Positions 6,530 to 56,546 of a DNA stretch of 64,000 bases are shown in pieces; position 1 is the first letter of the stretch; every line of letters starts with the position of its first letter. The stretch is from Schmidtea polychroa (taxonomy: Eukaryota). Location of the stretch: the NCBI GenBank assembly GCA_044892525.1, contig CM097886.1:146382001-146446000 (forward strand), in the 5' to 3' direction. The position numbers were made by a program, and so were the translations under genes. The notes beneath the pieces are model-generated. The model had not been told where the DNA came from and did not search any database. It worked only from the letters and a program-made list of their open reading frames with translations.

Positions 6530-8060
6530 CTATAAAACGTCTGGAAATCCAATAATTCAAAATCATAGGCGCATGGAAATGCAGATGGAATCAAAGGTGG
6601 ACGATATGATTATTACATTATTAAAATTGGGCATTATCAGGAATCTACGTTCGTGTTAGGTAAGAAAGACTGATCAATCAAGATGTGTCAAGATTTTAGC
6701 AAGGTTAATGAAGTTACTGAAATATTCAGTTTTCCAATGGCTTTTCCCTAAATAATATTTGATTCTTTGTCCGGATCTTCAGTTTTTTGTATCTAGACTT
6801 GGAGCAGGCATATTATCAGGTATATGTTTGTATGAAGCGGCTAAGGGACATAAAAAAGATTAAAAGGAATGACGAGTGTGAGGAAAGTTTCCGAAAACTT
6901 AAACATGCATTATCGAGTGCATCAATATTTACGCTTCCAAATAAGGTCGATTACTTTATTTTTGATACTAATGCGTGTTTAAGTGGAATTGGTGCTGTTC
7001 TAAGTCAAGTTTAAAATGGTTGTGAAAAAAGTCATAGCATATGGTTCAAGACTTTTAAGTGCTCGCGAGAAAAGATATTGTGTGACTAGAAAAGAACTAT
7101 TAGCAATATACGAGTATATACGATGTATTTTCGACATTATTTATATGACAAAAAGTTTGATATAAGTTCGGATCATAAGGGTTTAAAGTCCTTAAAATCA
7201 ACTTCGAAACCAATAAGTCCACAATTATAAACATGGTTGTGTGAATTGTCAGGTTATGATTTTGATTTAAAATATAGAAAGGGTGAAAATCATAACAATG
7301 CTGATGGACTATCGAAGATATTGCTAAGTTATTATCCACAATGTCAAACCGAACACGAAGAAGGAAAACTTGAAAAGAGCCGAATAATATTTTTAAACGT
7401 GATTACTTCAAGTAATTTAAATATGCACGTATATATTGAGAATCAGGAAACAGATAATCTGCTGTCTACAATAAAGAAATATGTACTAAACCTGAGTCCC
7501 GAGATACCTCACTTGATTCGGGATTCACTTTATTTCAAAAGATTGGATTAGATATTGGTAAAAGACAATCTGTTATTAATATTAAATGATGATAAGCAGA
7601 AGGTAATTCAGCAGAAGATAGCGTCACAAGAAGTACAGCATATGCATAAAGAACTGTGCCATTTAGGAGTTAAGAAAACAACAAATTATATGAACGATTA
7701 TTTCTTTGGATACACATGGTAACCGATGTACGAGATATTATAAAAATGTGATGTATGCAAGAGAAGAAAAGTTTTGACAAGCCAGACAGCTGAGTATTTA
7801 ATTCCTAGGGTAATAATGAATTCGATAGAACAAATTGTAATCGATATTACTCATATGAAAGAAACCAGAAACCGTGACCGTTATTTGTTAGTAATAATTG
7901 ATCAGTTCAGTAAGATGGATAGTTTAATGCCTATTTCGCACCAATATGAAATGACTGCATATTGGGCACTTTAACAGAATTGGTTATACAATTGTTTCGG
8001 ATAGAGGTAAGGTTTTCGAGGGAAGTTGAATCAAAGGGTTACTTGATAATTTTATCATCG
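6530..8060 (+). pseudogene. Ty3/gypsy pol remnant (partial RT, RNase H, integrase)
   Basis: LLKLGIIR and YLDLEQAYYQV (RT); FIFDTNACLSGIGAVLSQ, IAYGSRLLSAREKRYCVTRKELLAI and YRKGENHNNADGLS (RNase H); HKELCHLGVKKT..CDVC and IVIDIT...LLVIIDQFSK (integrase). Order RT-RH-IN is gypsy type; multiple stops and frameshifts. Confidence 0.9.
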
Positions 8061-8139
8061 AATGGCACAGTTCTTTATGCATATGCTGTACTTCTTGTGA
8101 CGCTATCTTCTGCTGAATTACCTTCTGCTTATCATCATT
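7585..8139. repeat. Exact 79-bp inverted repeat (7585-7663 vs 8061-8139)
   Basis: 8061-8139 is the exact reverse complement of 7585-7663 (aatgatgataagcagaagg...gaactgtgccatt). Confidence 0.95.
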
Positions 8140-9789
8140 AAAGTTACTAATTTAATTAATCTTTTACGAATTATTTACCAAATATTTATTTAAAATATCC
8201 ATTAAAAGGCAATCCGAATTCGAAGACAATTTTTGCCATCAGATCCAGCTGCATGGAGGTGTAATGCAACGATCCGTACATTTTACCCGATTTCATTATA
8301 TTCCCTAATTGTTATAGGTGGCGAGATCGACACCATTTCTACACAGGTAATTTCTCTTATGTTATTAAATTGTTTATTTTCAGCAAACTGGCTTTTCTTG
8401 ATAAAAAAAATTGACTGCCGAGTGGTTTTATTTCTACTCTTATGGGCTTGGCTGAGATATGATGATGGATCTTTCTCGGTGATGCCTTCTATGGTGATCT
8501 ATCCTAGTAAACAGATGTGAGTTTTGAATAATGTTTATAAAAATAAAAATTTTCTTTTTTCGTATTAAATTAAATTTGACTTTTATACGGTGATTAGCCA
8601 TGTGGAAATCTAAAAATTTCAAATTTGCGTTTTTAGTTAAATTCAACAGTTACAAAGTGGCTAACCATGGGATAATTAAGGCTAAGAGTGTTGCTGGAGG
8701 ATTAATGTTAAGGTTGGCCTGGCAAGCTGCCATGAAGATCTTTTGTCTCTCGTCCGTGGTAAGTGTAAGTCGATTTATGATGAGATCGAGTGTTAAAGTG
8801 GCGATTTCTCTTATGGCCGACGGTGATTGATCGGTTCATGGGGTTGACGTGTCGGGTCGGTTACATAGTATATGAATTTGCAGTTAACACATTATGAAGG
8901 GTATGTTACTCGCTTATTGGTCAATATTGAAAAATTTTTAAAAATCGATAATTTTACTTAAACTTTAATCAATAAAATAAATAATATAGTTTGAATATTT
9001 GAATTATGGGTTAGTTCGTGGTATTTACCTGGGGTAGGTTTTGCTGTTAACAATTTTAAAATGATTTATACAATTCAAGCAATATAGCTATCAGCTAGGT
9101 TGCAACACGTACACAGGGTAAGATAGTAATTATAACCTTTTTAATCAAATTAATTGGGGTCTATCATCATTCAGTTTGTGGTATTTTGTAGGACCTTGAT
9201 GAGGTGGGTTTATTACAAATTCAATGGTTTGAATGTGAGATAAGATAGTTTAGTGATAGTTGATGATGGATTTAGTGTGAATAACATAATTAGGGTGAAA
9301 TATAAGTCATTTATCATGTTTGTACAAGATAGGGTATTGAGGACGATATGGTTAGTATAAATAATGTCATCTGAATATTATTAAGGTATGAGTTAATAAT
9401 ATGAGGCTAATATGATAAATTGAGGTAATTCTAATCTAAGTTGAGAATGCCATAAGTTGATTGGTGTGGCTAATATAATCAAAGTGACCATAATGTACGT
9501 TAATAATGTGAGGGCAATAAGATACATTAAGGTAATAATAATATAAATGGTTAACGATGCAAGTGATAGAATTCGAGTATGGTAGAAGTTAATGATAATG
9601 TGGATTAATAATATAAGGTTAATAAAATCATTTAATAACAATATAAGTTGTTAACTATATAAGTTAAATAGTATGAATGATATAATTTGATTGTAATATA
9701 ATTTGATAATAATGGTCGTTAATAATAATAATACAAAGTTTATAATATTATGAATTATAATTTGATGATAAACATACACTAATATGTAA

Positions 9790-10630
9790 ATAATAAACAA
9801 TAAACCATCAACCTTACTATTAGTTTTCGAATTAGTTCGGTTCAATTCACGAAGACAAGTTTTGGCATAAAAAGTGTAAAGTCTTTTCAGTGTTTTTTTG
9901 ATCAAAATGTGGCGGTATATATACCTAGTTTTCGTGTGTGCGAATGCATAAGTGTGCATTGATGCAGTAAAACAAACTCGAATTCTTTTTAATTCTGGAA
10001 AATTCTACTTTTTATTTTCACTGATTTTTATGGAGATTTTTTCGTAATAATTTTTGTTTTTATTTTTCAATTATTTTTTATTACATATACCTCCATGATG
10101 GATTTACGCATTTCTAGAAAATTCCACACTAAGTTTAATCTAATTCTTATTTTAAAATCGTTTTTTGGTGAATTGTTTTTTAAAGATTTTTATATGTTGA
10201 ATTAAATTATTTTTTTTTAAATTTTATTGTGTCGCTTGGCGGCCATGATGGGTTTTGCCATTTTCAATGATTAATTTGTGTTTTTGATTATAATTTGGAT
10301 AAAATTTTCTCTATTTCAGATTTTTGTGAGATATTCGTTTAATTTTTTCACTAATTTTTACGAATCGCCTTTATTCGAGTTTGTTTCTGCAGTTCTATGC
10401 TTTTCTGTTGTATTTGAGTCGGTTTTCGTGCAATACTTCTTGCAATGTTTTAGTTTATTATTATTTGGGTGTTTTTAGTTTACGTTTTATTTTCTCTATT
10501 ATTACTGTTTAATTGGTGTTGTATTATGTTTTAATTTTAATTATACTTAATGCTGGGTATGTGTGTTGTGTGTCACCATATTTCGTCACAATCTCAAGAT
10601 GTGGGTCAAGTATTCAGTTCTAGCCCAATA
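9790..10630 (-). mobile_element. LTR-like sequence, family D (diverged copy, inverted relative to 14701-15460)
   Basis: Minus strand starts tattgggctagaactga and shares blocks with 14701-15460 (aaatccatcatgga, agaattaaaagaattcg, actaatagtaagg). Confidence 0.55.
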
Positions 10631-11196
10631 TTATATAAATGGGAAAAAATAAAAGTAACGTTTGAATCTTTTTAAAGAAAATAAAATATTTAAACTAAAC
10701 AAATAATCCTTTAAATAAAAAAAATGCATTAAATAAGTCATAAATGAAATTCACTTGAAAACAAAACAATTATTTATTTTAAATGAAATTAAACAGAGAA
10801 AAGAAATCCACTTTTTTTCAACAATTATTTATTATAAATGAAATAAAACAAATAAATCTAGATCTTTTAAATAAATAAAAAAATTCAATTTAATAAAGTT
10901 AAGTAAATAAATCAGAGACTGAAACCGAACTCGAACCCAGATGGGTTCAGGTTCGCTGTATTTTTAACCATGAACCGGAACCCTGTTGAAAACAGAAACT
11001 CATGCAGGTTATTCTGAATTTTTTTAGAAAAATAAAGGACAAAAAAGTAGTAAAGTTTTCGTATTCGTTAATGTTGCCTAGCTTATTTTCTTACGATACA
11101 AAATACAAAAAAAATGTCAAAAAAATAATTTCAATAAAAATTGATTCTGCTTCTCGTCTTGGAAGATGTATTGTAGGAATAAATACTCAATATATT

Positions 11197-11848
11197 TGTT
11201 GAGGATACCTAAATGAAAATTAACATAATAAATAAATAAAATACCTGGGGAAGATCGTCATGACAAATTGGACGATCTATGGGAACTCAGAAAAGAAAAC
11301 AGAAGTAAAAAGAAATTAAAAATGAGAAAGATAAATCAAATAAAAGGAAACAAACAAGAAATTAAAACAAAGGTCATTGTTAATTAAGAAGTAAAAATGA
11401 AGGTGGAATTTCAAAAAACAAAATAAGGGAAAAAGCCGTATCTTGACAGCCTGTCAAAGATAGCGAAATAGCCGGGAGAAGGCGGCTTAACAGAAAAGGA
11501 AAATGGGAAAATATCTTGACATCTGTCAGAGATAAGGCTGATTGAGAGGAAAAGGAAAAGGATAAACAGAATCTGTCGCCAGTGCCACAAACAAAACAAC
11601 TATATAAGGGAAAACTGGTGGACGAGAATCAGGACAGATTGAGAAACAAAAACAGAGCGAAAAGTAGAACGGAAACAGAACGAAGTTGAGAGCAAAACGA
11701 AACGAAATTAGAGGCAAAAAAGTAGAGTAAAATTAGAGACGACAGAGTAAAAAGGGAAATCAACACAGAGTGAAAAGAGAAGTGACAAGAATCTTTTATA
11801 AAATTGAATATAAAGTAAAAGTGGAGTAAATAAATTGTGTGGTCAAAG
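11197..11848 (+). mobile_element. LTR-like purine-rich fragment interrupting the hAT transposase
   Basis: Starts tgttgagg like family A LTRs, exactly where hAT-like coding stops; purine-rich U3-like composition; no matching end found. Confidence 0.4.
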
Positions 11849-12960
11849 TGTTGGGGTTCAGTAAGAACCGGAACTAAAAGTTTTAGAGTTAAATAAAAAT
11901 AGTGTTAAATAATTACCAAAAATAGAATTAAAATTACCAACTTTAGAATTTAATTATAAATAGTAACAAACAATTACTAAATTTAGATTTTTAACAAAAA
12001 TAGTATTTGAATAAAAAAATAAGTAGTATAAATAGTAATTAAATAATTACTATTAATAAAATAGAGTAAATAAAATGGTATTGTAAATTTTAGCTTAAGG
12101 ACGATATAAAATAGGTCAAACGAAAAGAAAAGAAAAAAAAATTATTGGGGCTCATCATTTTTGATTCAGTACAACGACTAAGATATAAATAGATTCGTTT
12201 AAAGATTTCATCAATTAAGAAATTTGGTTTAGTATCGATTAGAAAGATAGATTGCACCAATTGACAATTTGGTATCATCGATTAGAAATATAGCTTTCAA
12301 CAATCGACTATTTGGTATTTACTCATTATTATCGACTTGGAAATATAGCTACCAACAAGAAGAAATTTGGATTTAATAATCATTAGCCAATCAATTGGGA
12401 ACTTAACTCCAATAATTATCTATTGGAGTTGGAAATCAAAAGGAAAACAGACTATAGCATCGATAAAGAAGCTCAAAAACCAATTCGCGGTTTCGCTATT
12501 ATTGATTATTAATTAGTTAGTTATTACTTTTGAATTGTATATAGATTATTTCTAAAATTAAAGGGACACAGTCACCAGCCAACACTTTTGTAGCTGTTCT
12601 GACTGTTATAATTCCAACTATTAACCAATCATCTGGGTTAATAGTATAGCGATAAAACTTCGGGAATCCCTCCTCTTTATCCGTTCACCTATATCGGGCT
12701 GTTGGCGCATTTAGGGCCAGCCTTGATCCTTTGAAATAATCTTTAGGGCGGTTTGTATAACCGACATCTGAGCTTTAGCGTGCAGCCAGTTTTGCTAATT
12801 GTAATTGTATCAATTGTTTGTAAAATACTTCAGTTTTAAATAAATATTTAAAAGCATATTTGTTATTTATATCCAAACTACCTACACGCGTTATAACTAA
12901 TATTTGTGGAGTCAGATTTTCGATTGTGTTAGTTCGAGTACCTACCCATCGAACCTAACA
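11849..12960 (+). mobile_element. Solo LTR, family B copy 1 (1112 bp)
   Basis: tgttggggttcag...gaacctaaca (TG..CA), 4-bp TSD aaag on both sides, homologous to 22483-23560. Confidence 0.92.
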
Positions 12961-14700
12961 AAAGCAAATAGAACAATCGATCAACATGTTCTAGTCCTGC
13001 TTTTAAGAAAATACTAGATGAATGCAGAGCTATTTGAAAAAAATTACGAACACCAAATATTTCTTCTTTAGCTAAGAACCTAAACATGAAAAAAGCCATA
13101 CTAGACTGTCCAACTAGGTGGAATTCGAGCTATGACATGATAAAAGTCCTATTGGAATACAAAAGTTTTTATTCGGATTTAATTAATGTTGAATTAACTA
13201 TGAAAAGTTTTATAGAAGAAAAAGTTTTTTCAAATTAATTCGGAAAATATAAATTCCACATCTTCCATTGATAGTTCAGTTAAAAATGAGATGTAAATAT
13301 ACGAAAATTATCCAAGGCTAGCAAAAGAAAAAATTATTTTAGAATTTTGGAACCGACATAAAATACAAACCCTTTTACTATATCAGGTGGCCCAAATAAT
13401 ATTAGCAGTCCCTGTTACGCAAGTTAGCGTAGAGATCGCTTTTTCAGCTTTAAAATGTATACTATCACCACAACGAGCAAATTTAACAGAAGAGAACCTA
13501 AAAAATATTTTAACTGTTAAGTTAAATGAAAAATAAATAAAAGATTGTGGTTTTTTTTTCTAAATTTTGAACCCGAAATTGAACCCTGGACCGAACCTGA
13601 ACCCGAATTTTTTATTTTGATTAACCCGAACCTGAACCTGAACCCAATTTTTTAAGGTTTCAGTCTCTGAATAAATCATAAATGAAAATAAAAGAACAAT
13701 TATTTAAAACAATAAAATAAATATTTTTTAGTATTAAGCACTTAAGAAATTTAGTATAAATAGCGTTGGTAAATTCAATTCAATCAGCCAGACTTAGCTC
13801 CAGAATTTCTTGAAGTCAATCTTCTCGAAATTTAAAAATAATACAGTAATAATATAATAACACTAATATTTGAGAATCTTTATATCCTTGAAGTTAAACA
13901 AACCTACTTAGATTCTGAAAGTGCACATTTAAAAGTGAATTTTTGTTTAATAAATAGTTAAAAGAAGTCTAGTTAATTGATTTATATAAGAAACAGTAAG
14001 TTGAGAATCTCCACGAACCGAGTCTTTAAAATCAATTATTGAATATTTTATATTCGGGGGATAGGAATTAAAATCAGAGGGATAGTGTAGCATATATCGG
14101 GAAATTTTCTTTATACAATTAAATTATTATAGACTATATAAAATATTGATTGATATAGATCGTTCGTTTAAAGATGTTACAAAACTTTTTGGAGAGTTCT
14201 CTTATATCTGAAGGGATACGCACTATAGGCATATAATCATTTAATTATTTGCCTCTGGTACAATAGCAATTATCTGTACAGTTCATTATTTTCATTAGAA
14301 ACACAGTTGGGTTTTTGAAAAATTTAGCAGGTATTCGTCCTTATATTATTCCTGTATTCCTTTAAAGTTAAAATAGAAATTAATGTTTGAAAATTTTTGA
14401 TAGGGATCGGCCCTATCTCTCATATTCATTGATGTTAAAACGATTCTAATCACATTGCATTTTGTGTTGATTTTGCGTCAATAATGATTAAATGCTCGTT
14501 TTCCTCAGACCACTGGACGTTTGAGAAACGAGCGCTTAGTGTTCTATATAGTAAAATTAACTCTGTATTTTGAGTGTTTATTTTGCGTATGTAGTCGTTG
14601 TGCGCTATAGGTCGATTACATTATGTTAAAAGAGGAAATTGTTCATTACACACGGTCCACTGGAGTGTTATATGTTCAGAACTTGGCACTACGAACAAAC

Positions 14701-15300
14701 TGTTGGGCTAGAACTGATTTCTAGACCCAAAACTCTAAGTTGTGACTGAGGTGTGTTGGTACATAGCACGCAAATAGCAATAAGTTCAGTTAAATATAAA
14801 AAATACATCAAATAAACAAAATTAATTAAGAGGAAAAACAACAAAAAATGTAAACACAGAAACTAAATAAAATTATACAAATGAAAGAAGTATTGCAAGA
14901 AAACTAACTCAAAAATAACAAAGAAACATAAAAATTACAAAAAACAGACTCGAATAGCTTCGAAAGATATTAAAACAATAAAAATTCTAGAAAAATTCCA
15001 GAACACTTCATAAGAATGGCGACATCCATCATAAAAGCCATATAGATCAATAAAAGTTAACAAAAATAAATAAATTAGTTATAAAAATAAAAATTCGAAA
15101 AAAGAAATTAAGAAAAGCATCATTAAAATAAAAATTAATATGGAATGTTCTGGAATCGTTCCAAATCCATCATGGAAGTAAATTTAGCAAAAAATAAATA
15201 GAAAATAAAAATTTAAAAAATATCAAAAATAGAAAATTCTAGAATTAAAAGAATTCGGGTGTGTTTTAATGCATCAATACATACACGTGTACTTGCACAC

Positions 15301-15385
<85 letters not shown>

Positions 15386-18519: not shown

Positions 18520-19553
18520 TGTTTTTGGTTAATTTAAGTCGGTTCCCTCTGACTCCTCGTGTCCTTTAAATCAAAACAATAACGACCCAACGTATATTGA
18601 AATAACAAAATTCACAACCTTTTCTCACCACTTTACAATTAATAATCAAAGTTACGTTTGACCGATTCTCCGCTCGACGTTGATGCTTTGTAAATAGATA
18701 ATATTCACCTTTTATTTCTTTAGATTCTCTTGACCCACGTTTTCCTCTTTTTCACCTTTCCGTATTCCTATTCTATGTATTCTTTTCCCTAATCTCCTAA
18801 ATTTGTTTTGCCTATTCTTAAATCGGTTTCTTCTAACCCTAGCTGAGGCAAAATGCCGATTTGCTCTGATTTTCCCTTTCCTTATATACTTCTCGAAATT
18901 GGGATGACAAATGGTTATTGCCGAGCCAATCTTTCACTTGACATTTGCTTCCACGTATCTGCTTCGGCTTTCACCCATAATGGTCCAACGAACCAAGATA
19001 ATTAATATCCCTTCCGGCCTTTCTACACACACTATCTTCTCCTTCCTCTTTTCCAAATAATCATTGTGTCAAGCTAATGGGCCCAAATCTTCCTTCTGTT
19101 TACTTTCCTTCTTGTTTACACAGCTCGGGTTTCCTTCATCTCTCGGGTTCTCCATTGGCTCAGGTTTCCCCTTAGCTCGGGTTTTCTATTAGCCAATAAA
19201 TTAATTAATTAACTTTTCTGTTTTCACACATTTGAATGCTTTTCGACCCTTCCTAACCATTTTCTGATAAATCCCTAACCATCATCTTGTTGACCATTAG
19301 CTACTCTATACTTGTCCCGTTTTCCCCATTCGATTTCGATGATTTTACCATTTATTGATTTTTCTCGCATTTCCGGATTCTTGCCTTTCGTAATTGCTTT
19401 TGGCATTTATTAATACTGCTTCCATCACACTTTCCTTTACTATCGATTCTGTGCATGATCCCGCTTTTATTTGTCTTTTGTCTTCACTTACTTTTTATTT
19501 AAATTATTAACCTAAATTTCATTTAAATTTATTTTAATTTACGGACTTCAACA
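18520..19553 (-). mobile_element. Family A LTR (3' LTR of the gag-only element, 1034 bp)
   Basis: Minus strand TGTTGAAGTCC...AAAAACA, preceded by a G-rich PPT (19554-19567); homologous over its full length to solo LTR 59470-60529; TATA (ccttatatact), CCAAT and ctcgggtttcc repeats. Confidence 0.92.
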
Positions 19554-19672
19554 TATCCCCCCCCCTTTAAAATATTTTTCGTCCTCGAAATCTATTTTGA
19601 TGTGATTTATTAAAACTTATTAAATAATTACGTATTCCACAATAAACAATTAAAATTCCCATAGATTAAATT

Positions 19673-19713
<41 letters not shown>

Positions 19714-20336
19714 AAGAGAGATCTTGTTTTGATTAAATTAATTAGACAGTTCTGATGATATAAGTCACGAGCTATTTAAAGGAAACAGTGTACACCGAAA
19801 AATGATTATACTTAAATGATAATTGGGGTCCATAGACATTTGTCAAAACGAATCATAATTGAGACTAACTTTTAAGTTCAACTTTTAGTATAAGGTTTGA
19901 AAATAATTTTCCAATTTTCGTAAACATTATTATCGTGTCGATAAATTAAATTCCAAATTATTCATACTATTTTTAAAATAAAATTTTGTGTTTCATCCAT
20001 TTATTGTTTTAATTTTTCTCGTTAATCTATCTGATTTATTTTTTTATTAATCAGAATTTCCTTATCCCAAATAATGTTCGGCAAACTTTGATTTAGCCTG
20101 ACAATGATATCAAGTAATTATCGTAATTAATTTGTTTACCTTAATGAAATAACCTCTTTATAGAAAAAATTAAGAAACCACAACTGGCGAATGATGGATT
20201 CCTTGTACATACAACTTGTCCTAAAACACACGCATGCATTAATTTCAGAGAATCAACACCAATCCTTCATCATCCAATCAAAACTCTAAATATTTCCTCA
20301 CTAATGATTGTTGGATGTAAGCCAATGATTTCAGTT

Positions 20337-21343
20337 TTAGATTCTATGAAATTTGAATTTATTGATATTCACTTTGTCCCTTTGTGGTGAAGGTGACGTT
20401 GACGATGATCTTGATCTAGTGAAACAGTTTCTGCTAATATGCCCTTTCTTTCCACATCGATAGCATTCGACATCACTACTGATCCTTTTGTTTTCTGTGA
20501 ATCTATTGTTAGGGCTGTGATTTTTCCCATATTTGAACCAACATTGATTTGAGTAGTGTCCGGACTTTTTGCAATGTTCGCACTGAGGCTTATTTACCTG
20601 TCCATTTGATGGCACGTTCATGGCTGATCTGCTGGTTTGAAATCTATTATTTGGTCTCAAAATTGGACTACTGATTTGGTTTATTTTCTTTTCATCCCAT
20701 GGTGCTCTCACAGGAGTAATTGACCGCTCACGTCTCTCCACATTAACTCCAAAAGCATCTGATCTTTTCGCCCTTTTTAAATTCAGCTCTATCTTCATAG
20801 CTTTCTTCTCGAGCTCATCGAAATTAGAAAAATCCACATAACATAGGGCCTTTTTGATTTCGGAGTGGACTCCGGTTATAAACTGATCTTCTAACAGCTC
20901 TTTAACCTGCTTGGCCATATTTACTTGATCTGGTTTGACTTCAAAGGCTTTATCTGCTAAAGTGGAGAGATGATAAGCAAACTCACTGACCAATTCCTCT
21001 GAACCTTGAACTCGATTATAGAATTTCTGTCGCATAATTCTTTTGATATCTCCACCAACCAGTTTCAGTGTCATTGCATCCTTCAATTTGGTCCAATCAT
21101 TGCCAACGTTCCGTTTGTCGACTTGCTGCCAGGCTTCTCTTACCGCACCCTTCAGATAGAGTGGGAATCTCTGAACCATAATGGCTTGTGTCCATCAGTA
21201 TGCTGAGGCATACATATAATAATCTCCCATGAAATCCACGAATTCAACAGGGTCTCTCCATATTGATTAACGGGTAATTTTTGGAAACTTGCGAAATCAA
21301 TCATCTCTCTATTGAGAGGCATAATAGCATTATCATTTGCCAT
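20337..21343 (-). pseudogene. Ty3/gypsy gag (capsid + two CCHC zinc knuckles), one frameshift and one stop
   Basis: ORFs 21152-21343 and 20337-21179 join via GDPVEFVDFMGDYYMYASAY*WTQAIMVQRFPLYLKGAVREAW; RQKFYNRVQGSEELVSEF; knuckles CEHCKKSGHYSNQC and CYRCGKKGHISRNC. Confidence 0.93.
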
Positions 21344-21643
21344 TTGGACTTCTGAGGTTGTATCGGTTCACTTTAAGCTAAACTTCAAACGTTAAACAAT
21401 AATTTAAATTACTTTTCAACTTCTTTTAAATCTTCCAATAATAGCCTTTAATATCTATCTCGTCAGCACTATTTTCCAAAAATTTTCCACCACTTTCAAT
21501 AATTTTCAGCCGACTTGCAATCACGTCTGTACTCTTTTTCCCAAATATTTTTGCAATAACTTTCAATAATTCTCTGCTGACTTTCGATCACGTCGGTACT
21601 ATTTTTTTGTCACTAACTTTCAATAATTCTCCACCGACTTTCT

Positions 21644-21661
21644 ATCACGTCGGGCTCACCA
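21644..21661 (-). promoter_or_regulatory. Primer-binding site, tRNA-Trp-like
   Basis: Minus strand TGGTGAGCCCGACGTGAT matches the canonical tRNA-Trp PBS TGGTGACCCCGACGTGAT at 17/18 positions; it lies 7 nt after an LTR end. Confidence 0.85.
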
Positions 21662-21668
21662 GAATATA

Positions 21669-21937
21669 TGTTGACCATTAGCTACCCTATACCTGTCCCG
21701 TTTTCCCCATTCGATTTCGATGATTCTTCAATTTATTGATTTTTCTCGGATTTCCGGATTCTTGCCTTTCGTAATTGCTTTTGGCATTTATTAATACTGC
21801 TTCCATCACACTTTCCTTTACTATCGATCCTGTGCATGATCCCGCTTTTATTTGTCTTTTTTTTTCTTCTCTTACTCTTTATTTAAATTATTAACCTAAA
21901 TTTCATTTAAATTTATTTTAATTTACGGACCTCAACA
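21669..21937 (-). mobile_element. Short (269 bp) family A LTR with PPT upstream and PBS downstream
   Basis: Matches the first ~265 nt of LTR A (19290-19553); TG..CA ends; PPT aagaggggagata at 21938-21950. Confidence 0.88.
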
Positions 21938-22482
21938 TATCTCCCCTCTTAAAAAAATTTTTTTCGTCCTCGAAATCGATGTTTTGCTGTGATTATGTCC
22001 TTGGATGTAATTTTAAATACATTTAAATATTATTAGATTGTATTTTATACTTTAAATTTATTACCTTAAAATTATTTCTTGTCTGTTGTTTAAACAGCCC
22101 AATTTAATTATTGTTATTAATCAATAACTAATAAATTTTATTTAATCAATTTGATCAATAATTTTAACTTTGGCCTGTAACAGAAAACATTGACGAACGG
22201 AATGGGTTAACTTTTTCTAAACCAGTTGCCAAATTTTATTATTATTTTATAAAAATTCCAGCTAATAGTTAGCTGGTAAATATAAATATATAAGTTAAAT
22301 TATTGACATTAATTTATTATTTCAATCCAATTTAATTTTTTTCTTAATAAACTCTCATTATAACAAACGGATATCTTAATCATCTTAATCTTAAATTTTT
22401 AATCATATAATAATTATTTGGACAGACGGATATCTGTCCCGCTAGACATCAATGGAATTTTTAAGATAAGCCCATAAATTTC

Positions 22483-23560
22483 TGTTGGGGTTCAGTAGGA
22501 ACCGGAATTTGAAAGGTTTTGAAATTAAATAATAATTAATTACTAAAATTAGAATTATAATATAAATAGTATTTAAAAAATTACTAAAATTGGAACTAAA
22601 ATATAAATAGTAATAAATAATTACTAAAAATAGATTTGTACCAAAAATAGTAATTATTTAAAAAAAGATATAATAAAAATAGTAATTAAATAATTACTAT
22701 TAATAGATTTAAAATAAATAAATTTTTATAAATACGAGATGAAAAATTAGATGAGGGGACGAATTTGAGACAAGTAGACCAGAAAGAAACATAGCCGCAG
22801 TAGTTAATATTGGAAAAGAAGCAATCGATTTGATTTGAAACCAATTCGCGTCAGTTGACATTTATTTTGCCGTCTAATTGGGAATTTAACAGTAGACAGA
22901 ATTTCATCCTAAATATTAATCGATCGAAAAATTAATTTTTGCAATTCTGATTTTTGGAATATTCTTTATTCTAAATTACAATATTCTTTGGAAATATTTA
23001 AATCAAAGGAAGAAAATTATTAGAATTTAATTCAACTGTGGTTTTGGCTATTTTCTGGGAGAAATTTAAATAAGCAGGAAATTATATTAGTTAGTATTTA
23101 TTATTCTTATCTAAATAATTATAAATATAAATATCTATATAAAAATTTATTCAATTAAATAAAACTTAAACAAGAGAAACAGTAACGTCAGCACGTATTT
23201 TTTGTGCTGTTTCGTTGCTAATATTGTTTGAAAAAGGGTTAACCAATTTCTAGGTTGACTCCATCGCGTAAAATTTGGTAAACTTCCCTATCTCTTTTCC
23301 GTTCACCTATATCGGGCTGTTGGCGCATTTAGGGCCAGCCTTGATTCTTAATAATACTCTTTAGGGCGGTTTGTATAACCGTTTTTCTGTACTTTTAGAA
23401 AGCATCGTGTTTTATATAAACAACCGTGTAACTAACTTTTATTTGTTAATAAATATTTAAAACATATTTCTTATTTATTTACCGACGCGCATTTTATATT
23501 ATTTGGAGTCAGATTAAACCTTTTTGTGTTAGTCCGAATACATACCCATCGAACCTAACA
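22483..23560 (+). mobile_element. Solo LTR, family B copy 2 (1078 bp)
   Basis: tgttggggttcag...gaacctaaca with 4-bp TSD tttc. Confidence 0.92.
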
Positions 23561-23838
23561 TTTCAAGAAATTCTTAATTATCTAATAATTATTTAGACAG
23601 ACGGATATCTGTCCCTCTAGACATCAATGGGATTTTAAAGTTAATTTTTACGATAAGCCCATATGTATATATTATTTTTATGACCATAATTGTTAATTTT
23701 TTTCATTTGTCTTTAATTATCATCGTCCGTGTGTATTCATTAATCCAACCAATAAATGATTGTGATTTTTGATTACAAATACCAATTTAACAAATTATTT
23801 TCAGTTTTTCCCAAAAAATATGCAATAGCTCAAGGATT

Positions 23839-24345
23839 TTGTTTTTTATCGTCATATTAGAAAATGACCAGCGAGTCAAGAGATTAGTGCTCAGCCATGC
23901 TTATCTAAATAGAAGATGGACAATCAAACCAGATACCGTGACAAAAGCGAACATTTCGTATTTAGAATTCACTGAGAGAACGGGTTGGTATATGATACAT
24001 CACGAAATAGTAGATTTAATACCTCCTGCAAAGGGAAAACTAACTAGCAAAGGAAAGGCTAGATTAGTAAATACTCCTGGTTGTAGAGGAATAAATGCTT
24101 TGGATTGGTTTAATATTAGAAAGGTAGCGAGTGAAAAACAGTCCCGTATGAATAGATTAATTAATAATTGTAGTTGTCAAAATATATTAAAGGGAACAAC
24201 AGGAGATAAAACGCCAACTTGGCTATTCTTAGTTATGATAGGGGGAGTGATTTGCATGATTTTAACCTTAATATTAGCTATCCTATGGATGTTTAGATTA
24301 ATGATGAGGGATATTCGATATTGGGAAAATATTTACGAAACCTAG
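23839..24345 (+). CDS. LTR-element cargo ORF1: small predicted single-pass membrane protein (5' end probably damaged)
   Basis: 168-codon ORF with Cys residues, an NIS sequon, the hydrophobic C-terminal run WLFLVMIGGVICMILTLILAILWMF and a short basic tail. Confidence 0.6.
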   Translation: MFFIVILENDQRVKRLVLSHAYLNRRWTIKPDTVTKANISYLEFTERTGWYMIHHEIVDLIPPAKGKLTSKGKARLVNTPGCRGINALDWFNIRKVASEKQSRMNRLINNCSCQNILKGTTGDKTPTWLFLVMIGGVICMILTLILAILWMFRLMMRDIRYWENIYET

Positions 24346-24531
24346 GTATAGGGGGAAAGTCTCACTATATACTAGGAAGTGTAAATATATATAATTATTT
24401 ATTCGATGTTTATTTATATTAGTATGTAAACTAATGTGGCCTCAACAGAGCATCGGTAAAATCAGACATCAAAGTATGTCGACTTTGGTTACCCTGCGAT
24501 AAAAGCTGTTAATCATTTTATTTTTTTAGAA

Positions 24532-25650
24532 ATGAATTACAACAGAGAACCAAAGCCACCAGTCAAAGCAAATCGACGACACCCGTTGGCAACGTATAAT
24601 TCCCAGACTCGAGATGAAACAGAGGTATACAGTACATATAAAGAAGAATACTTATACAGGTTCATCGGAAACACGGTCGCAGCGAAAATGAACCATCTTA
24701 CCTCAAACTATTGGTATTATCCTAGGAGAGTGGATATTCCAAATGATTTTAAATTCCAAGGAGGGCCTCGAAGGCAAATGATGGTGACGGTTATAAACAA
24801 CCAGTGAAGATTAAAACTGGCGGAACTATGCAGAGAATATGGTTCATGTCAGAAATTAGAAAACATTTGGATCCATGCGATCAATAGGCAATTCACTGTA
24901 TTTATGGCGGGATTAGAGTTACCTGTTTAATTGGAAAAACAGTGTACTCTAGAGATATACCATGCTGATGGACGAGAACGAAATATTATGATCCAGGCAG
25001 CAGCAGTTGATACCATAATCGCAGTAGAAATTTTGGACTTCAGGAAGCCATACCCAATAGTTAGCAAAAATGAACAATGTAAATCGTTTGTGAGGAAAAA
25101 ATTGAACAAAGCCGAGGAGAATCCAGTAAAACACTACCAAACGCACCAATACAAGTTAAAGGAACCCGATATTAGAGGAAACCTCGACGAAGATGATTGT
25201 TATCATCTGATAAGGAAGATTTGCGATAAGAAAATACTTGTAGGTATTTTGCTTAAAGATCTAATCTCGGTAGCCAATCTACCTGTGCAGCGAATATTGG
25301 GTATTCGTGACCTTTCTGCAAATAAACTATTGGAAACCAGAGGAGTCCCTAAGATTCATGGTCATTACAGATTGGGATTCCTGACAAAGACTTTCCTGCG
25401 TACGGTTCCCGGAGAACCAAGGAATTTAGTGGTCACCAATGAGGCACTGGCAATACGTGCAGTTTATTTACCTATCAGAAACGAATGGTTAGGCCATATC
25501 ACGATACCCCAGGAGGAATTCATTTCCGCAACTACAGCAGCAATAGTTGAACAGGAAATGACGCAGAAGACAAGATTACCCGAGCAACCCCAGCCTAAGA
25601 GGAAATCACCTGTGGACCTACCACCGCATCCAGCCATATCAATTTGGTAA
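24532..25650 (+). pseudogene. LTR-element cargo ORF2: ~372 codons with a C-terminal REX4/ISG20-like DEDDh exonuclease fold (two in-frame stops)
   Basis: ORFs 24532-24807 and 24931-25650 are in one frame, joined across TGA 24805 and TAA 24928. NPVKHYQTHQYKLKEPDI...KICDKKILVGILLKDL...IRDLS...RLGFLTKTFL...NEALAIRAVY..IRNEW parallels the REX4 pattern PVTDYRT..SGIRPEDL...LLKGRILVGH.L..D...IRDTS...SLK.LAK.FL...EDARATM.LY....EW. Confidence 0.7.
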
Positions 25651-25654
25651 GAAG

Positions 25655-26407
25655 ATGAGTACGAAACATGCGTTAGTAAGGCAGAGACGAAAAAAACACC
25701 CAAACAATCATCTGGTGCTGCCAAAGTCGGAAAATGCAGTAAGAAAGGAAAATCCAGAAGGAGGCAAGGTGAAAAAGATGTTAAAGAAAATATTACCCGT
25801 AAAAAGAGACAAATCTAAGCTAAAGTTGAAAAAAGTTGTTAAACAGGCGGAAGGAACGACAAAGGTGACACCCAACAATTTGGAAAATAGAAAAAGTAAA
25901 CCCAAGAAGATATTCAGTGAACCAGATGATGACATTGTGGAAGTTGCCTTTCAACCTCCGGTTAAGGAGATGCAAGAAGTAATAAAGGTTAAGTCGGAAC
26001 CTGTGGTTAGGCAGAAATTGTTGAAAATTACGAAGGAAAATATTATCAAGAAACCAGTTTCGGTTGATGTGGATGGCTTCGAACCAATGTGGTACAAACG
26101 CCCAGATAGTAAATGGAAACCCAGAGCCAAAGAGTATGACTGCCTACCAGTCACGGGAATGGCAGTAATTAACAACCAAAAGTATGATATTTATGACGTA
26201 GACTGAATCCCTTACGTAGTGTCTACGGTCATATTAACAAGCGCTCTGGATGGCAAGGCTCTGGCAGTGAGTTTTGAGCCAGAAGTCTTGCAGAAGAGGA
26301 AAAAGAAGTTGCAGCAGCAATATGTGGTTGCAAATAGCTACAGTACAAAGGAGTTACACCTCTACAAAATTTGTCGCCGAATTCATTGTGTGTATAAAGT
26401 GACTTGA
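25655..26407 (+). pseudogene. LTR-element cargo ORF3: Lys-rich ~250-codon ORF with one in-frame TGA
   Basis: ORFs 25655-26206 and 26219-26407 share a frame across TGA 26204-26206; basic low-complexity N-half and globular-looking C-terminal part. Confidence 0.6.
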
Positions 26408-26620
26408 TTATTATCTGACATTGTGACAATTTAGTCATTTGACATTTGATATTTATGATTCAGTTATTGTGATTTGATACATTTATTTTATTTTTGTGTA
26501 AAACTGTCTTGTCTTATTTGATAAATTTTTATGTTTTATTGTTATTGCTGTTTATCTAAAGCCTTTCACTTGAGTTACTTATCTTGTTTTCGAGACGAAA
26601 ATCTTTTAGGGGGTAAGACC

Positions 26621-27605
26621 TGTTAGGGATAGGCCAGGAGCCTGAAAGTTAAAATAATAAAAATTACTATATTTGGAAATAGGATAAATAAAAATAATAA
26701 ATAATTACTTAAAATAAAATATAGGTTTAATTAAATATTATAAATAAAAATAAGTTGTACATAGTAATATTTAATCATACTGATACTATAAATAGTAATT
26801 ATAATATTACTTATAATATTACTTATATTATACAAATATTATTTATTATAAATACTGGTTCAAAAACGAGAACCAGGGAGAGAAATAATTAGGAGAACAA
26901 TCAGACGAGAAAAATAAACGAGTTCACAGGAAAGGAAAACGATTGAGATTAAAATCTGAAGAGAAATTTTGGAGAAGTACTTTAGTCGAGTTTTAGACGA
27001 AAAACAGATTTTGTGGATATTGTACCAGTGGTAGCATATTGCAGTGACGTCTTAGAGGTGAAAATAAACTATAAATTGAAAACTGAACAATCAGAAAACA
27101 GGATAGAGATAATTCAGAAAATATTTTGAACCTGAAAATTCGTGTATTTGTAAAAGCAGATTAATTCCAAGGTAGAGTTTCATTAGTGAAGGATAATTCT
27201 TATCCTTTTGTGTTGATCATTTTAAAATTAAGCGAATACAATGTAGTGTTAACTTACTTTAGTATTCCCTCGGTGCCCCAAAATAATTAGCACTTACTTA
27301 ACCAACTCTTTCGTCGACTTTGCGATCGTTATGCTACATAGGAGCCATCGATCTCTTGCAGGCTGATATAAACAGCAGGGATTAACAAATCCATTGTCTT
27401 GTATTTTTATTTCTACACATACTTGTAAATTATCATTTGTAAATTATTGATAAAAGTTTTGTAAAGAGGAAGGAGTTTGTTTTTAATTCATCATTCTATT
27501 TAATTTAAATACGCGCAACCACATTAAATATATTATATTTATACCTAGTTTTATTTATTGGAGTCATAGTGTTGAGATCAGTACCCCTTCTTTTCGATCT
27601 TGACA
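26621..27605 (+). mobile_element. 3' LTR, family C (985 bp) preceded by PPT
   Basis: tgttagggata...cttgaca. Upstream ttttcgagacgaaaatcttttagggggtaagacc resembles the PPT context of family A. No PBS follows. Confidence 0.75.
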
Positions 27606-29439
27606 GAAGAATAGAAATTTTGATTGGTAATTTTTATTTAATAAATATTTTGAACATCAAACTTTGTCTTTTTGTGTTGCGATATATAGATAGATAACAC
27701 CAGTGCAACGTTGAGAATCTCAATTCCCGTTATCGAGATCTCAACACATCTATAATACAGGTTGGTGTGTAAATCAATTATAGATGACTCACCATTTGTG
27801 ATGAAATTTAATTTATAAGTTAATAATGGTTTTAGCCATTTTGGAAATGGTTTTCGAGTAAAATTTTTAATTTTTTAGTAAATTTTATGGTTTGAATTTT
27901 GATTTTTTATATAAATGAGCTCATTATTCAAGTTCTTAAATATTAATTTTAGTCAAAATTTGTATTATAATTTATTTTTAATTACTTTTCAGCTTTTATA
28001 AGGAATTCATACATGATATTTATTTAGGAATTTTTTCGATATAATGTAAATTAGATATATTTCTAGCTATCATTTATTAAAGAAATTAATCGCCAAATAC
28101 ATTTATTTTTTAATACATTATTTTCCCTGTTCTCCTGAAATAGTTTGTATGCTGCCACCTTTTATTCCTTTGGAAATTTATCCACATTTTTTGCATATGT
28201 AAATTATAGTTCCATTCACTCAACATTTTAAACAGTGAAGTTTTATAATCCTTTTATTACATGTGTTGGGCAAAAAGTTAGAAATTAAATTAATTTTTGC
28301 CTAAATCGAAAAGAACTATGAAAAATTGCAAAAATTCAAATTGAAAGAAAAAAATAGTGGTAAAGTACAAAATAGAATGAGAAAAAAAAGAAAATATAAT
28401 ACAAAATTGAATTAAAAAACAAAAAAGGTAAATAGAATAAGATTGCAAATAAGATGCAAATTATTATATGCTGTGTTTGTGAGTTAAATGAATTTTTTCT
28501 TCCACTTTCTCACTTTCTATAATATATGCTTTTATTCCATGCAATATAAAAAAATTCTACACAGACAAATTTTTGTGTTTTAATAATATAAGAGAATTGA
28601 CTTTTTTATATTATAGATGCTTTTATTCCATGCAAACAGGTGTATCATGCATACATAACATTTGACCACAGAACTAAAAACTCATTTTTGTTGAAGTAAA
28701 CATCTAAAGTTATATTTCGAAGTTGTAAAATGCAAATTGTAAATTTTGATACTTAATAAATTTTATATATATTGCATTGATAATTTCAAATCATTTTATT
28801 GAGACTTCAACGAATAAGCCAAATTTGAACATAATGTATGACTCACTTTCAGCTCGTGAGACTTCAGAATTTTTAATTTTACAAGTTTATCCCCAAAATT
28901 GAAATCTATTTTGGGAAGTTTTCTTTTAAGTTTAAATCATGATTTAAGTTGTTTAGTAATTCAGGATTTTTTCTATGTACGCTGTGAAACATAGATCCTG
29001 GATGCCAGGCATCATTTTATAAAGATCTTTTAACTCTGATTGTAAAATATCTGAGGACTTTAACCCTTTCAGGCCGGGTGTGCGTAATTATGCACTTTAA
29101 CTTCATTATTTTTTAGAGAACTAGAATCAATATGTTTTAATCACGCTTTTATTATTTAATGCTGACAATATTTATAAGCATAACCTAAAATTTATGTTAG
29201 TGTGTGTCAAGTTGTTCCTGAGATACTCCATAATTAAATGATCATAGCCAAGCAATTTTCAAAAGTACAAGGTTAGTATGATTTAATTTTATTTTTTATA
29301 CAGAAAATATAATTAAAATTAAAATATTTATATACAATAATGCAGATATAGATCGCAGCTGATCAGCCATGTCTTTTCCCTAACTTAAATTCAAAATTTA
29401 ACAATACAATAGATTAAAAAACTATGTGCATATATATGA

Positions 29440-39764: not shown

Positions 39765-42700
39765 TTATTGAATAAAACGCAATAAAAAAGAATTAAGAAT
39801 TTCTTTCACTTTTGCATTCATAGGCATGTAGTGGCCTCCATCGTGGATAATTAGAGTCTTATCACCGTATTTGTCTAAAGTTTGAACTGTTAATTCTAAA
39901 GAAATAAATTGGAGATATTAACTGGACGAAAATAATTAGAAAACTGACCAGATGGAATAACTTTGTCAGTGCTTCCATAAATTACCAAGCAGGGTGTATT
40001 AATAACATGTTTGTATAAATCAGTAAATTGAGATGATTTTGCATAAAATGGTGCAACCAAAATAGCAAATTTTATATTAATAATATTGAATAACTCTAAA
40101 TGTACTGATAAGTAGTAAAAATAAAAACTAATTCTTCACCTAAATCCATTTCAATTAAGTGAAGTAAGATTTGTGCGAACGCAGCACCCTGGCTGAACGA
40201 TAAAATACCAGCAAAAGGTCCCTTAAGACAAAATTCAATAATGACCAAAGAAATGTCAATACTTTTTCTCGGAATGTTGATTTTATTAATTCCAAAGATT
40301 CAATAAATCCTTTATTGCAGTTAGATGAATCTAGTGCGTTGAAGTAATTATTTTCATTTGAAAACCACCAACTATATTCTAAAGGTACGTGCAATTATTA
40401 CATAATGTTTGATTTTTTAAAAATTTAATTGATAAACTCATTAACTACCAGATTTCTTTTTAAATTTTGTAATAGATATTAAATATTTTTGTTTAGTGCA
40501 CTTGTACAGGTCGGCAAACGGTCAACTTAAAAATATATTATAATATACAGTGTGTATTTCAATGGATATTAATTTAGTTTCATAAAATTAAATTGAAAAA
40601 TAACATCGGAATCCGAATTTGAGGATCAGGGAAGCTAATAAGTTAGCTTTAAGTAAACATTTTTATTTTAAATGTTAATTAGTGTTGAAGAACGAGGCAG
40701 GGCCCATAGACACATGTATACTGTCTAAGTACTGTCGAAAAGGGCCAAATAGATTCAGTTTAAGTACACTCAGAAGGCAAATGAAAAAACCAACCCAAGT
40801 CACAATCCAATACAATATCAAAGAGCATATCCTATTGTTAATTTGTACATTTGACTATCCTTGTGAATATTTAACTAATTATCCTATTAATTGTTATTTG
40901 TATGCTTAGTAAGTCGGTGTAATTATTCATTATTTGTTCTTAAAATTACTTATTTTATCAGTATAGTTGAAATTCTTATTCTATTTAATCTTATGTATAT
41001 CTGGCATTTTTATGATTTTTTATGAAAAAAATTACATATTATTTTGTGGTTAACGGTTGGTGGATAATCACTTTGATAGTCAAATGGTGTTTTTAAAATT
41101 TTCAGGAGAAAATTATTGTTTTACTGTATTATCTGCTATGAAAATACATTCAACATTTTTGAAATGAAATTAATCAACTAGAATGGTAAGATTATTGGTT
41201 CCATCTGATCCTATCTTCCTCGGATTATCTTCACCATTCGAAGCACGGCCTCTCGATCTACCCGTATGTGCTCGAGTAATTGGACATAATTCACTTAATT
41301 TATGATAGTGATTCGAACATATTTGAATATTTAGAAATTATGGAATAAAATTACGTACTTATTGCAACTCAACAAGAGTAATAGACCTGGAATAAAATAG
41401 CCCTTTACACATTCATACCAACACACAAACTACTCGCCATTAAGGACGCGAAGAACATGAGATACATACATCCAAGTTGAATAACCCTTCAGCACATCAA
41501 AGCAAAATGTATAGATATATAATGACTTTATAATAATAAATCTAAATTAACCGTATAACTTTATTATCCTCTCATAATTTCTATAAATATAATATATGAA
41601 CAGCAATGCTGAGTTATACACGGTTGAATGGGTCAATGTAGGGATTCTTGTAGGAATCCCGCCTATTTGACAGTATCTTTTAGTTGTTTTTTATATATGT
41701 CGTAGGCAAATGGTAATTTTAGGAAAATAACATTTGGCTAGGCAAATGCTATTTGCCTGGTCAAATAGCTTTAGCTATTATTTCATTTCCATTTGACTAG
41801 GAAAATAGCATTTGCCCAGGCAAAAGCCATTTGGCTAAATCTTTGTTGGGCAAATAATTCTAATGTTATTAATTTCGAGGTTACAAAGATATGAAGAAAA
41901 AAATTGAAATAACCATTAATGTATTATTTATTTAAATATATTGTTCCTCGGTAACTAAAACCACTGCAACTGTAAACATTTACAAAAATAATTCAAATAT
42001 TTTTTGATGTTTATTGTATATTTAACTAACTTCAGCTTGCTACAACACTACAACTTCAGTGCAGTTTTTATTAAAAATAAATAAATTATAAGAATTTAAT
42101 ATTAGATTAGATAATAGTAAATCGATTTTATAAGTAAGTAAATACTTCATTATTTTAGTGATGTTACCATATTTTAATTATAGAATTGTATATTGCTCAA
42201 ATATCAGATTTTAAGGTTATGTTGTTAACAGTTGTTAATTTGTAAATAAGTTTTTTAGGCTATGGTTGACAAGGATGAATTTTATCTTCATTTAAATGAA
42301 AAATATAAATCCACAACTGTAAAAAAACCATGAAATTCTGAAAAAATAGAAATTATAATGATTTTAAAACAGTGTCAAACAAAAATGCCACGAGAGATGT
42401 CTTCACTCGAGAAATATTATTCATCTAAATATGGTCTTCTAGAAATTTTCTGGCATAACAAAAATAATATTAAATACAAAGACTACCGATCATGACATTA
42501 TTTACATGACACCTATTGAAGAATTTTATGATAAAATTTCAGAACAACATTTGGCGATGGGACATGGAGGAAGAGATAAATTTTTACATATGCTAAAGAA
42601 AAAGTACAATGTTCCAAAAATTGATGTTGAAATTTTTATTCAACTATGTCATACCTACAATTTAAAAAAAACTCAGAAAAAAAGGGTTTAGTAGTAAAAC

Positions 42701-55869: not shown

Positions 55870-56305
55870 TAAACTATATACTAAAATTTCGCTAAAGAAG
55901 TTGTTGTCACAGCAAACGAAAAGGGATGAGTGGACGTGAATATGATCAGCTATTGGTTAGAAAAAATTTGGCGTAAACGCAATAATTCATTATTTTGCCA
56001 GAAATCAGTTATAATATATGATTCGGCTCGACCTTACATCACAGAAGAAGTCAAAGAAACAGTGAAAAGTTTTCAAAATTGGCTATTATTCCTGGAGGAC
56101 TGACATCTAAATTACAACCACTAGATCTAAGCGTTAATAAATCAATTAAAATCAAAATACGTGAGAAATGGGAGGACTGGGTGGTCTATGGATGACGAAG
56201 AAGAATCTGGAGAAGAATCCGAAAATCAAATCGAATCTGAAATTGCAGAATTTTTGGACGAGGTGTTTAAACTCTTTAATATTGAATCTAATGAGGAATT
56301 TGTTG
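55870..56305 (+). mobile_element. pogo DDE transposase fragment
   Basis: VVTANEKG*VD..YWLEKIWRKR...IIYDSARPY...IIPGGLTSKLQPLDLSVNKSIK..IREKWEDW, then an acidic tail. Confidence 0.85.
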
Positions 56306-56357
56306 TAGTTGGGGCAATCCGATCTGGTAATTTGGCAATAGAATTTTCAGTAAGAGC

Positions 56358-56546
56358 ATCGTCTAAATAACCGCCTTTCATATCATGACATAAGAGAACT
56401 TTATTGCGTTGCGAATTATGATTTTCGACAACTTTCATTCCATTCATTTCTTGGAATATTGGTTTCTGGTAATCAAATATACATTTGTTGCTAGTATTAA
56501 CTGGCTTCCAATTAATTAATTCCTTATATGTATATAATGGTCGCAT
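56358..56546 (-). pseudogene. ENGASE: 5' fragment of cytosolic endo-beta-N-acetylglucosaminidase (GH85)
   Basis: MRPLYTYKELINWKP...RNKVLLCHDMKGGYLDD matches the ENGase N-terminal LxCHDMxGGYLDD motif; similarity stops abruptly after DD. Confidence 0.8.

Follow-up and report, generated by a model that had tools for sequence, protein, structure and literature searches.

A decayed 3′ end of a probable GAG-ENV-POL element in Schmidtea polychroa, with a probable membrane tail and one accessory gene whose product may be made by stop-codon readthrough

A 64,000-nucleotide (nt) stretch of Schmidtea polychroa DNA (contig CM097886.1 of assembly GCA_044892525.1, positions 146,382,001 to 146,446,000; here the window) holds a cassette of decayed open reading frames (ORFs) directly upstream of a long terminal repeat (LTR), which we call LTR C. 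We hold with moderate confidence that this cassette is the 5′-truncated, decayed 3′ end of a GAG-ENV-POL (Burro-like) Ty3/gypsy element, with a membrane tail and one accessory gene made by readthrough. What survives at the locus is a truncated, dead 3′ end that comprises two coding units, both decayed; by six-frame reading its coding DNA spans 23791–26404 on the + strand, all in one orientation. The first unit (ORF1) would be the membrane-anchored tail that closes the polyprotein after the integrase, as in the intact relative L001. The second would be one accessory gene of about 600 codons, encoding a beta-helix, a catalytically dead ISG20-like DEDDh domain, a disordered linker, and a small C-terminal domain. 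A first-pass annotation had described the same DNA as three accessory genes (ORF1 to ORF3) served by two splice acceptors, in a layout like that of complex retroviruses. Its broad placement, at the 3′ end of an LTR element of gypsy type that can encode accessory proteins, agrees with the multicopy contigs and the polypurine tract (PPT)–LTR junction described below. The co-orientation of the three ORFs also stands, but three intact genes do not, and neither does the three-gene layout: there are two coding units, the ORF2 frame has two internal stops, and the first acceptor apparently lies outside the sequence of the family. The layout of L001 as that of the window family, the identity of ORF1, the expression route, and the function are the parts of this reading that we infer.

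The second unit reads from an ATG at 24532 through internal stops at 24805 and 24928 to a stop at 25648 (ORF2), and continues beyond it. Its parts are as follows.

24532–25070, + strand: N-terminal double-stranded beta-helix (cupin/AlkB-like) domain of the accessory gene, placed by homologue tblastn matches in frame +1 from 24583 and by homologue folds.
25071–25515, + strand: ISG20/REX4-like DEDDh pseudo-nuclease domain of the accessory gene, placed by an Atlas match to RNase_T (0.93) and a profile match to ISG20L2.
25516–26404, + strand: low-complexity linker of the accessory gene, followed by its C-terminal tail (ORF3 and the open stretch 26207–26404), placed by tblastn and a C-terminal profile.

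Using the ORF2 frame with X at its stops as query and a threshold of E ≤ 1e-3, we found 18 homologues, to which a profile search added P0020 (n = 19). The accessory family comprises at least 19 sequences at 23–48% identity. Eight of the 19 homologues are single ORFs of 485–609 amino acids (aa) that span both domains, the rest being fragments or of other lengths, and every homologue match on 24583–25614 lies in frame +1 by tblastn. Alignment gaps indicate that the window copy lacks about 56 codons near 25071–25123, ExoI strands among them. Public contigs from 4 of the 15 listed runs were aligned to 21400–28200, and one of them runs to 382 letters across a segment that measures 214 in the window (24908–25123), in agreement with the gaps in the DEDDh-domain alignment. 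A word-index protein search with the C-terminal part of ORF2 gave a match for none of 307 candidates.

ORF3 (25655–26206), a 183-codon open frame, is most likely the C-terminal tail of the accessory gene, severed by a stop and a frameshift, because P0020 spans both frames and because a C-terminal profile ranks ORF3 first. Residues 240–390 of P0020 match frame +1 and residues 396–533 match frame +2, the frame of ORF3 (tblastn). With a profile of three homologue C-termini, built without the window sequence, ORF3 tiles rank first of 2532 and none of 1000 shuffles reaches them; a two-sequence profile gives the same ranking. The tail is broken by the stop at 25648, by a frameshift between ~25614 and 25733, and by the stop at 26204, and the frame stays open for 65 further codons past the ORF3 stop. 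Two comparisons speak against this assignment: a five-sequence C-terminal profile, for which 31 of 1000 shuffles do as well as ORF3, and pairwise tests of ORF3 with nine homologue C-termini, which reached p < 0.05 in two (P0003, p 0.03; P0017, p 0.047). The stretch 26207–26401 alone matches none of the nine.

It is very improbable that ORF3 belonged to a set of three independent accessory genes with one start apiece. The first pass had measured 4 nt from the ORF2 stop (25648–25650) to the ORF3 ATG (25655), which is correct and which, with the 183-codon open frame, would suit a gene of its own, but the gap is a product of decay. We rejected the separate Lys-rich gene: ORF3 matches the C-termini of single-ORF homologues, the matches of P0020 run across both frames, ORF2 is broken, and the ATG at 23820 that had been offered as the start of the first gene is out of frame. 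As a separate observation, a motif that follows an acidic patch is common to ORF3, P0002, P0003, P0005, and P0020; we take it to be SUMO-consensus-like.

The AlphaFold model of P0003 has two domains, with a predicted local distance difference test score mostly >80 for residues 20–365 and low past that. Residues 198–365 match ISG20 (Z 17.7, root-mean-square deviation [rmsd] 3.2, 161 aligned; Foldseek E 1.1e-7), and the family profile matches ISG20L2 (E 5.5e-14). Together with the Atlas match, this bears out the DEDDh-like fold that had been noted in the ORF2 region; an RNase H-like DEDD fold is present in the natural homologues and in the window segment. Exuperantia is a further structure match (Z 10.3). 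Residues 10–156 of P0003 match 2-oxoglutarate (2OG)-dioxygenase folds, namely ALKBH6 (Z 11.7, rmsd 3.6, 138 aligned), ALKBH7 (Z 11.2), and a prolyl hydroxylase (Z 10.9). A shorter model of this domain, lacking the first strand and helix, favors cupins (Z up to 9.3) over ALKBH6 (7.7), and the N-terminal domain is therefore safely called a double-stranded beta-helix, AlkB-like or cupin-like.

Both domains look catalytically dead, because the ExoI acids and the His-x4-Asp are lost and no conserved HxD is seen. Reading catalytic positions by eye from the alignments rather than by script, we found both ExoI acids (D and E) in none of the 12 natural rows that have the ExoI motif; D is kept in one and E in two. 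Of 11 natural rows, only that of P0017, whose ExoI part is absent, retains the His-x4-Asp. Among 16 homologues scanned, P0017 alone has a Pfam RNase_T match (E 3.3e-6); with its ExoIII His and Asp kept, it may mark a lineage nearer to an active ancestor. No conserved HxD was seen in the first domain in the homologue alignments, its sole conserved His lying, by our reading, on another strand of the model, and the homologues scanned have no match to any 2OG-oxygenase Pfam family. The accessory protein is most likely a non-catalytic RNA-binding module, given its folds and the precedent of Maelstrom and EXD1, inactive DEDD proteins that retain RNA binding (PMC5408684; here and below, PMC numbers stand for parts of the texts in question). 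It might hold or shield the RNA of the element, like other dead DEDD proteins. Maelstrom, EXD1, and Exuperantia resemble the accessory protein in having a DEDD fold without the catalytic residues but differ in being host genes, and ISG20 and ISG20L2 are structurally nearest here.

The listed cassette sites are each covered by ~4–24 diverged contigs in two DNA-type runs from two studies, and the cassette therefore belongs to a repeat family rather than to a host locus. Copy status was judged from the number of contigs; summed depth does not give a copy number. The 3′ boundary of the cassette is formed by three features.

26589–26601, + strand: conserved pre-PPT motif, with three matches in the window.
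26608–26618, + strand: PPT, read from the sequence.
26621–27746, + strand: LTR C, with a TG start, candidate CA ends at 27604, 27699, and 27746, and a length of ~1.0–1.1 kb.

The junction of PPT and LTR C that had been placed after the cassette is thus present: the PPT is followed by the TG start at 26621, with the pre-PPT motif ahead. The three motif matches compare with 0.01 expected (0/100 shuffles), and each lies just before a PPT and LTR start; the other two precede the PPT–LTR junctions of a minus-strand element. At E 1e-8 the window contains no further copy of LTR C, which resembles the LTRs at 11849–12960 and 22483–23561 only distantly. At its uncertain 3′ end (27570–27746) there are a 10-nt inverted repeat pair and a small palindrome.

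The first-pass annotation had itself named the alternative of a single-copy host gene region with an LTR inserted alongside. We rejected this alternative and consider it hardly credible. A reverse transcriptase (RT) is not linked in the window, as a host region would predict, but many diverged contigs occur at every listed site in two studies, a PPT and pre-PPT motif are present, and the homologue L001 lies within a retroelement. Two absences weigh against our assignment to an element: the window has no RT, env, or 5′ LTR linked to the cassette, and no contig bridges the cassette and LTR C among the 32 pieces listed of 20,930, which proves nothing either way.

The layout of the missing part is modeled on L001, which has a frame of 3184 codons that includes zf-CCHC, UBX (weak), Monjiviricetes_fusion (E 1.4e-90), protease, RT, and RNase H as well as integrase, followed by the accessory homologue. 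Its env, of gB type (Monjiviricetes_fusion), lies in frame between gag and protease. Some 340 residues past the integrase (L001:8900–9934) comprise a signal-like segment, an ectodomain of ~270 residues, and a transmembrane (TM) anchor, with no Pfam match; this tail would be a second membrane protein. BIR, BCL2, MATH, and ankyrin families have no Pfam match in L001, and its RT region matched none of three candidates among viral contigs; a separate alignment (A5) matched none of 24 candidates there. The neighboring minus-strand gag of the window (20424–21254) shares homology with that of L001 (E 4e-31), and the element of that gag shares the pre-PPT motif with the cassette. It counts against the transfer of this layout that L001 is the only one of the 19 homologues with known context and is ~24% identical to the window protein.

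The first coding unit of the window has two features.

23845–24345, + strand: ORF1 remnant, a 5′-truncated ectodomain and membrane anchor; the frame is open over 23791–24345.
About 24229–24285, + strand: predicted TM segment of ORF1, with a hydropathy of 2.97 across 19 residues.

The membrane segment upholds the description of ORF1 as a membrane protein, and the ORF has type I membrane topology, five Cys, and three N-glycosylation sequons. ORF1 is probably what is left of the C-terminal tail behind the integrase in a gag-env-pol polyprotein, because L001 has a membrane tail at the same position and with the same topology. ORF1 and the L001 polyprotein tail have no BLASTP similarity (E 4.3), which weighs against this identification; it therefore rests on position. 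Other searches with ORF1 gave a curated Pfam match for none of ORF1–3 (eight window segments), no usable match in Atlas, and none among 359 candidates in a word-index search of proteins of 323–2000 aa, a size range that a polyprotein of ~3000 aa falls outside.

The sequence of the family appears to reach its 5′ limit at ~23845: in three runs contigs extend at most 49 letters from site 23894, and contigs are joined to tandemly repeated DNA at 23843. The acceptor ending at 23804 and the ATG at 23820, which had been proposed as the start of ORF1, would therefore be outside the family sequence. We rejected this start, as the ATG is in another frame than ORF1 and meets a stop two codons on, and both sites are apparently upstream of the family sequence; the acceptor itself is ordinary, with 8 of 14 pyrimidines, whereas 289 + strand sites in the window have at least 9. 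The first in-frame ATG of ORF1 is at 23992, with none earlier, and the first stop of ORF1 is absent from the contigs listed at that site.

These observations bear on the alternative that ORF1 was a small envelope-like gene in its own right, having a separate start and acceptor, which would make a two-gene 3′ cassette behind an ordinary gag-pol. Its type I topology, Cys residues, and sequons would fit such a gene, rotifer elements have small TM ORF3s (PMC5408684), and the lack of similarity to the L001 tail agrees with it. The absence of an in-frame ATG before 23992, the apparent cut of the family sequence at ~23845, and the polyprotein tail found here in the single known context (L001) all argue the other way, and we judge a stand-alone ORF1 unlikely.

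The proposal that the accessory protein is made by readthrough comes from L001, where the accessory frame continues straight from the polyprotein stop, in frame. That stop is TGA-CGG, the sole one among the 841 stop triplets of that strand. Among 5000 shuffles, the 159-nt spacer from the stop to an ATG behind a T-rich AG stayed open in 32; for its first 66 nt, which reach to the first in-frame ATG, the count was 445. A predicted stem starts 7 nt past the stop and ranks first for fold strength among 60 windows (z −4.1; for the 132-nt stretch z −1.86, 8/200); the stem region (L001:9932–10030) is G/C-rich within very AT-rich DNA. Type II readthrough signals of alphaviruses and furoviruses consist of UGA-CGG/CUA with a 3′ stem after 7–12 nt (PMC3159437), and L001 is like them in its UGA-CGG, 7-nt spacer, long stem, and large loop. 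It differs in that its site is at the end of gag-env-pol and leads into an accessory gene, whereas the window has the hairpin but no in-frame TGA. Putative readthrough at the end of the L001 polyprotein is well supported at the level of sequence; the accessory protein would then most likely be made from the polyprotein at a low, fixed level.

In the window, ORF1 and the accessory gene share one frame, and the fold on the ORF1 stop is the strongest of 54 100-nt windows across the cassette (z −4.1). The shared frame and a hairpin in the same place as in L001 suggest the same route. Three features of the window bear on it and on splicing.

24341–24376, + strand: predicted stem-loop across the ORF1 end (z −3.05, 1/200 shuffles, for 24340–24460).
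24435–24496, + strand: spacer segment kept in a distant family contig of run X5 (depth 448), which skips both flanks; its folding is not significant, and the whole spacer (24430–24531) does not fold better than shuffles (169/200).
24513–24529, + strand: polypyrimidine tract-AG, a candidate splice acceptor, with 12 of 14 pyrimidines, 2 nt before the ATG at 24532.

Several observations weigh against readthrough in the window family. The window copy has six stops, none of them TGA, between ORF1 and the ATG at 24532. Relative to this copy most contigs have an insertion at 24409, and contigs over 24498–24803 have 2–11 gap letters, so that an open linker in the window family is not shown. In five homologues (P0002–P0005 and P0020), starts are called just ahead of the conserved domain, and an own start codon therefore fits these better than readthrough.

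The alternative is that the same element, with its single accessory gene, expressed that gene only from a spliced subgenomic RNA, with a donor in the 5′ leader and the AG at 24529 as acceptor. The first-pass annotation had placed this T-tract-AG correctly, 2 nt before the ATG, but misquoted its letters (there is an A at 24520). It is the cassette's best such site, being the sole + strand YAG with at least 11 of 14 pyrimidines in 23700–26620, against 46 such + strand sites in the 64-kb window. L001 has a similar T-rich AG at L001:10080, 13 nt before an in-frame ATG (one of five such sites in 11.9 kb). The homologue starts called near the domain agree with splicing, and spliced messages are the usual source of ORF3 expression in LTR elements (PMC5408684). 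Contrary to it, no GT..AG joint is found among the 15 joints listed of 140, from runs none of which is on record as RNA, which proves nothing either way; two runs presumed to be RNA contribute contigs that contain the T-tract, fitting unspliced RNA or DNA; and splicing alone leaves the in-frame TGA-CGG and stem of L001 unexplained. Splicing to 24529 is possible, and splicing as the only route we regard as a tentative, minority explanation. For the window family, readthrough and splicing are close rivals, and both routes may operate.

Elements of the GAG-ENV-POL type are known from planarians. The Burro layout has env in frame between gag and pol (PMC6431247), and errantiviruses of GAG-ENV-POL layout occur in Platyhelminthes, Nematoda, and Bryozoa (PMC13524379). 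It has been suggested that the GAG-ENV-POL elements of planarians are integrated proviruses, and PIWI holds down Burro1 (PMC6431247; PMC8532177). L001 resembles GAG-ENV-POL errantiviruses, Burro, and GYPSM1 in its in-frame gB-type env and ubiquitin-like match, and a homologous gag lies beside the cassette; by eye only, its env resembles that of Smed_errantivirus_1. Burro1 has 4873 aa compared with the 3184 codons of L001. In the strict sense, Burro elements are giant, with multi-kb LTRs and BIR/BCL2/MATH/ankyrin cargo, whereas LTR C is only ~1.0–1.1 kb and the internal region is missing from the window. An undescribed gypsy lineage, as had been suggested, is not needed, since GAG-ENV-POL errantiviruses and Burro are already described.

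The accessory protein family appears to be undescribed, although its lineage is known. The 3′ genes of planarian GAG-ENV-POL elements are unannotated in the texts consulted. The main text of PMC13524379 has no mention of exonuclease, DEDD, or readthrough, and seven of its supplements none of exonuclease; a membrane tail after the integrase, a DEDD/beta-helix gene at the 3′ end, and readthrough all go unmentioned in the parts of PMC13524379 and PMC6431247 covered. More generally, the fusion of a beta-helix with a dead ISG20-like domain, the post-integrase membrane tail, and readthrough at a polyprotein end had no description in the literature searched (Grohme 2018, Sacco 2022, and Repbase were outside this scope and may hold annotation). 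Two systems come near in part. Bdelloid Juno and Vesta carry a DEDD-fold gene 3′ of pol, in a gypsy-type element and beside TM-bearing ORFs, but their ORF3 is an RNase D-like, active DEDDy protein with intact catalytic DEED, whereas the window family is ISG20/REX4-like DEDDh without the catalytic residues and joined to a beta-helix (PMC5408684). A large Ty3/gypsy element of Phalaenopsis has an extra ORF with a 2OG-dioxygenase-like fold; its product is an active m6A (N6-methyladenosine) demethylase with clear AlkB sequence similarity, whereas the window family is alike by fold only, with AlkB and cupin not separated (PMC9289625).

Being dead, the window copy matters only as a pointer to the family. 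Two nucleic-acid-handling folds that have lost their chemistry and are conserved make the accessory protein a concrete candidate for a role in packaging RNA or in counter-silencing. Recoding where the polyprotein ends, rather than at the gag-pol junction, would be an unusual expression strategy if true. As a speculative extension, to which we assign a low probability, the flatworm-type GAG-ENV-POL polyprotein may end in a second membrane protein to which readthrough appends the AlkB-like and ISG20-like pseudo-enzyme on the cytoplasmic side, tethering genomic RNA to the budding membrane or shielding it from m6A-, exonuclease-, or PIWI-interacting RNA (piRNA)-based defense. If true, this would be a matrix-like or counter-defense job undescribed for any retroelement in the literature searched.

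Other repeats surround the cassette. The minus-strand element at 18521–21994 is a gag-only, internally deleted LTR element, with a short LTR at 21669–21938, gag at 20337–21194, and PPT and LTR at 18521–19556; its primer-binding site presumably resembles tRNA-Trp. A second PPT at ~21945–21990 marks a tandem arrangement of this element, and a further LTR copy is at 59476–60532. A solo LTR with a short direct flank repeat lies at 22483–23561 and is related to 11849–12960. It is located between two copies of a 77-nt repeat (22393–22469 and 23568–23644), which has a 104-nt tandem unit in other copies. Terminal-inverted-repeat elements occupy 41692–44383, 7582–8142, 9916–15319, and 51668–53308, and ORFs elsewhere in the window resemble what we take to be hAT, Tigger/pogo, Tc1, and piggyBac transposases. 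On the minus strand, 56226–56594 is a host-like exon that presumably resembles endo-beta-N-acetylglucosaminidase, judged by its motif.

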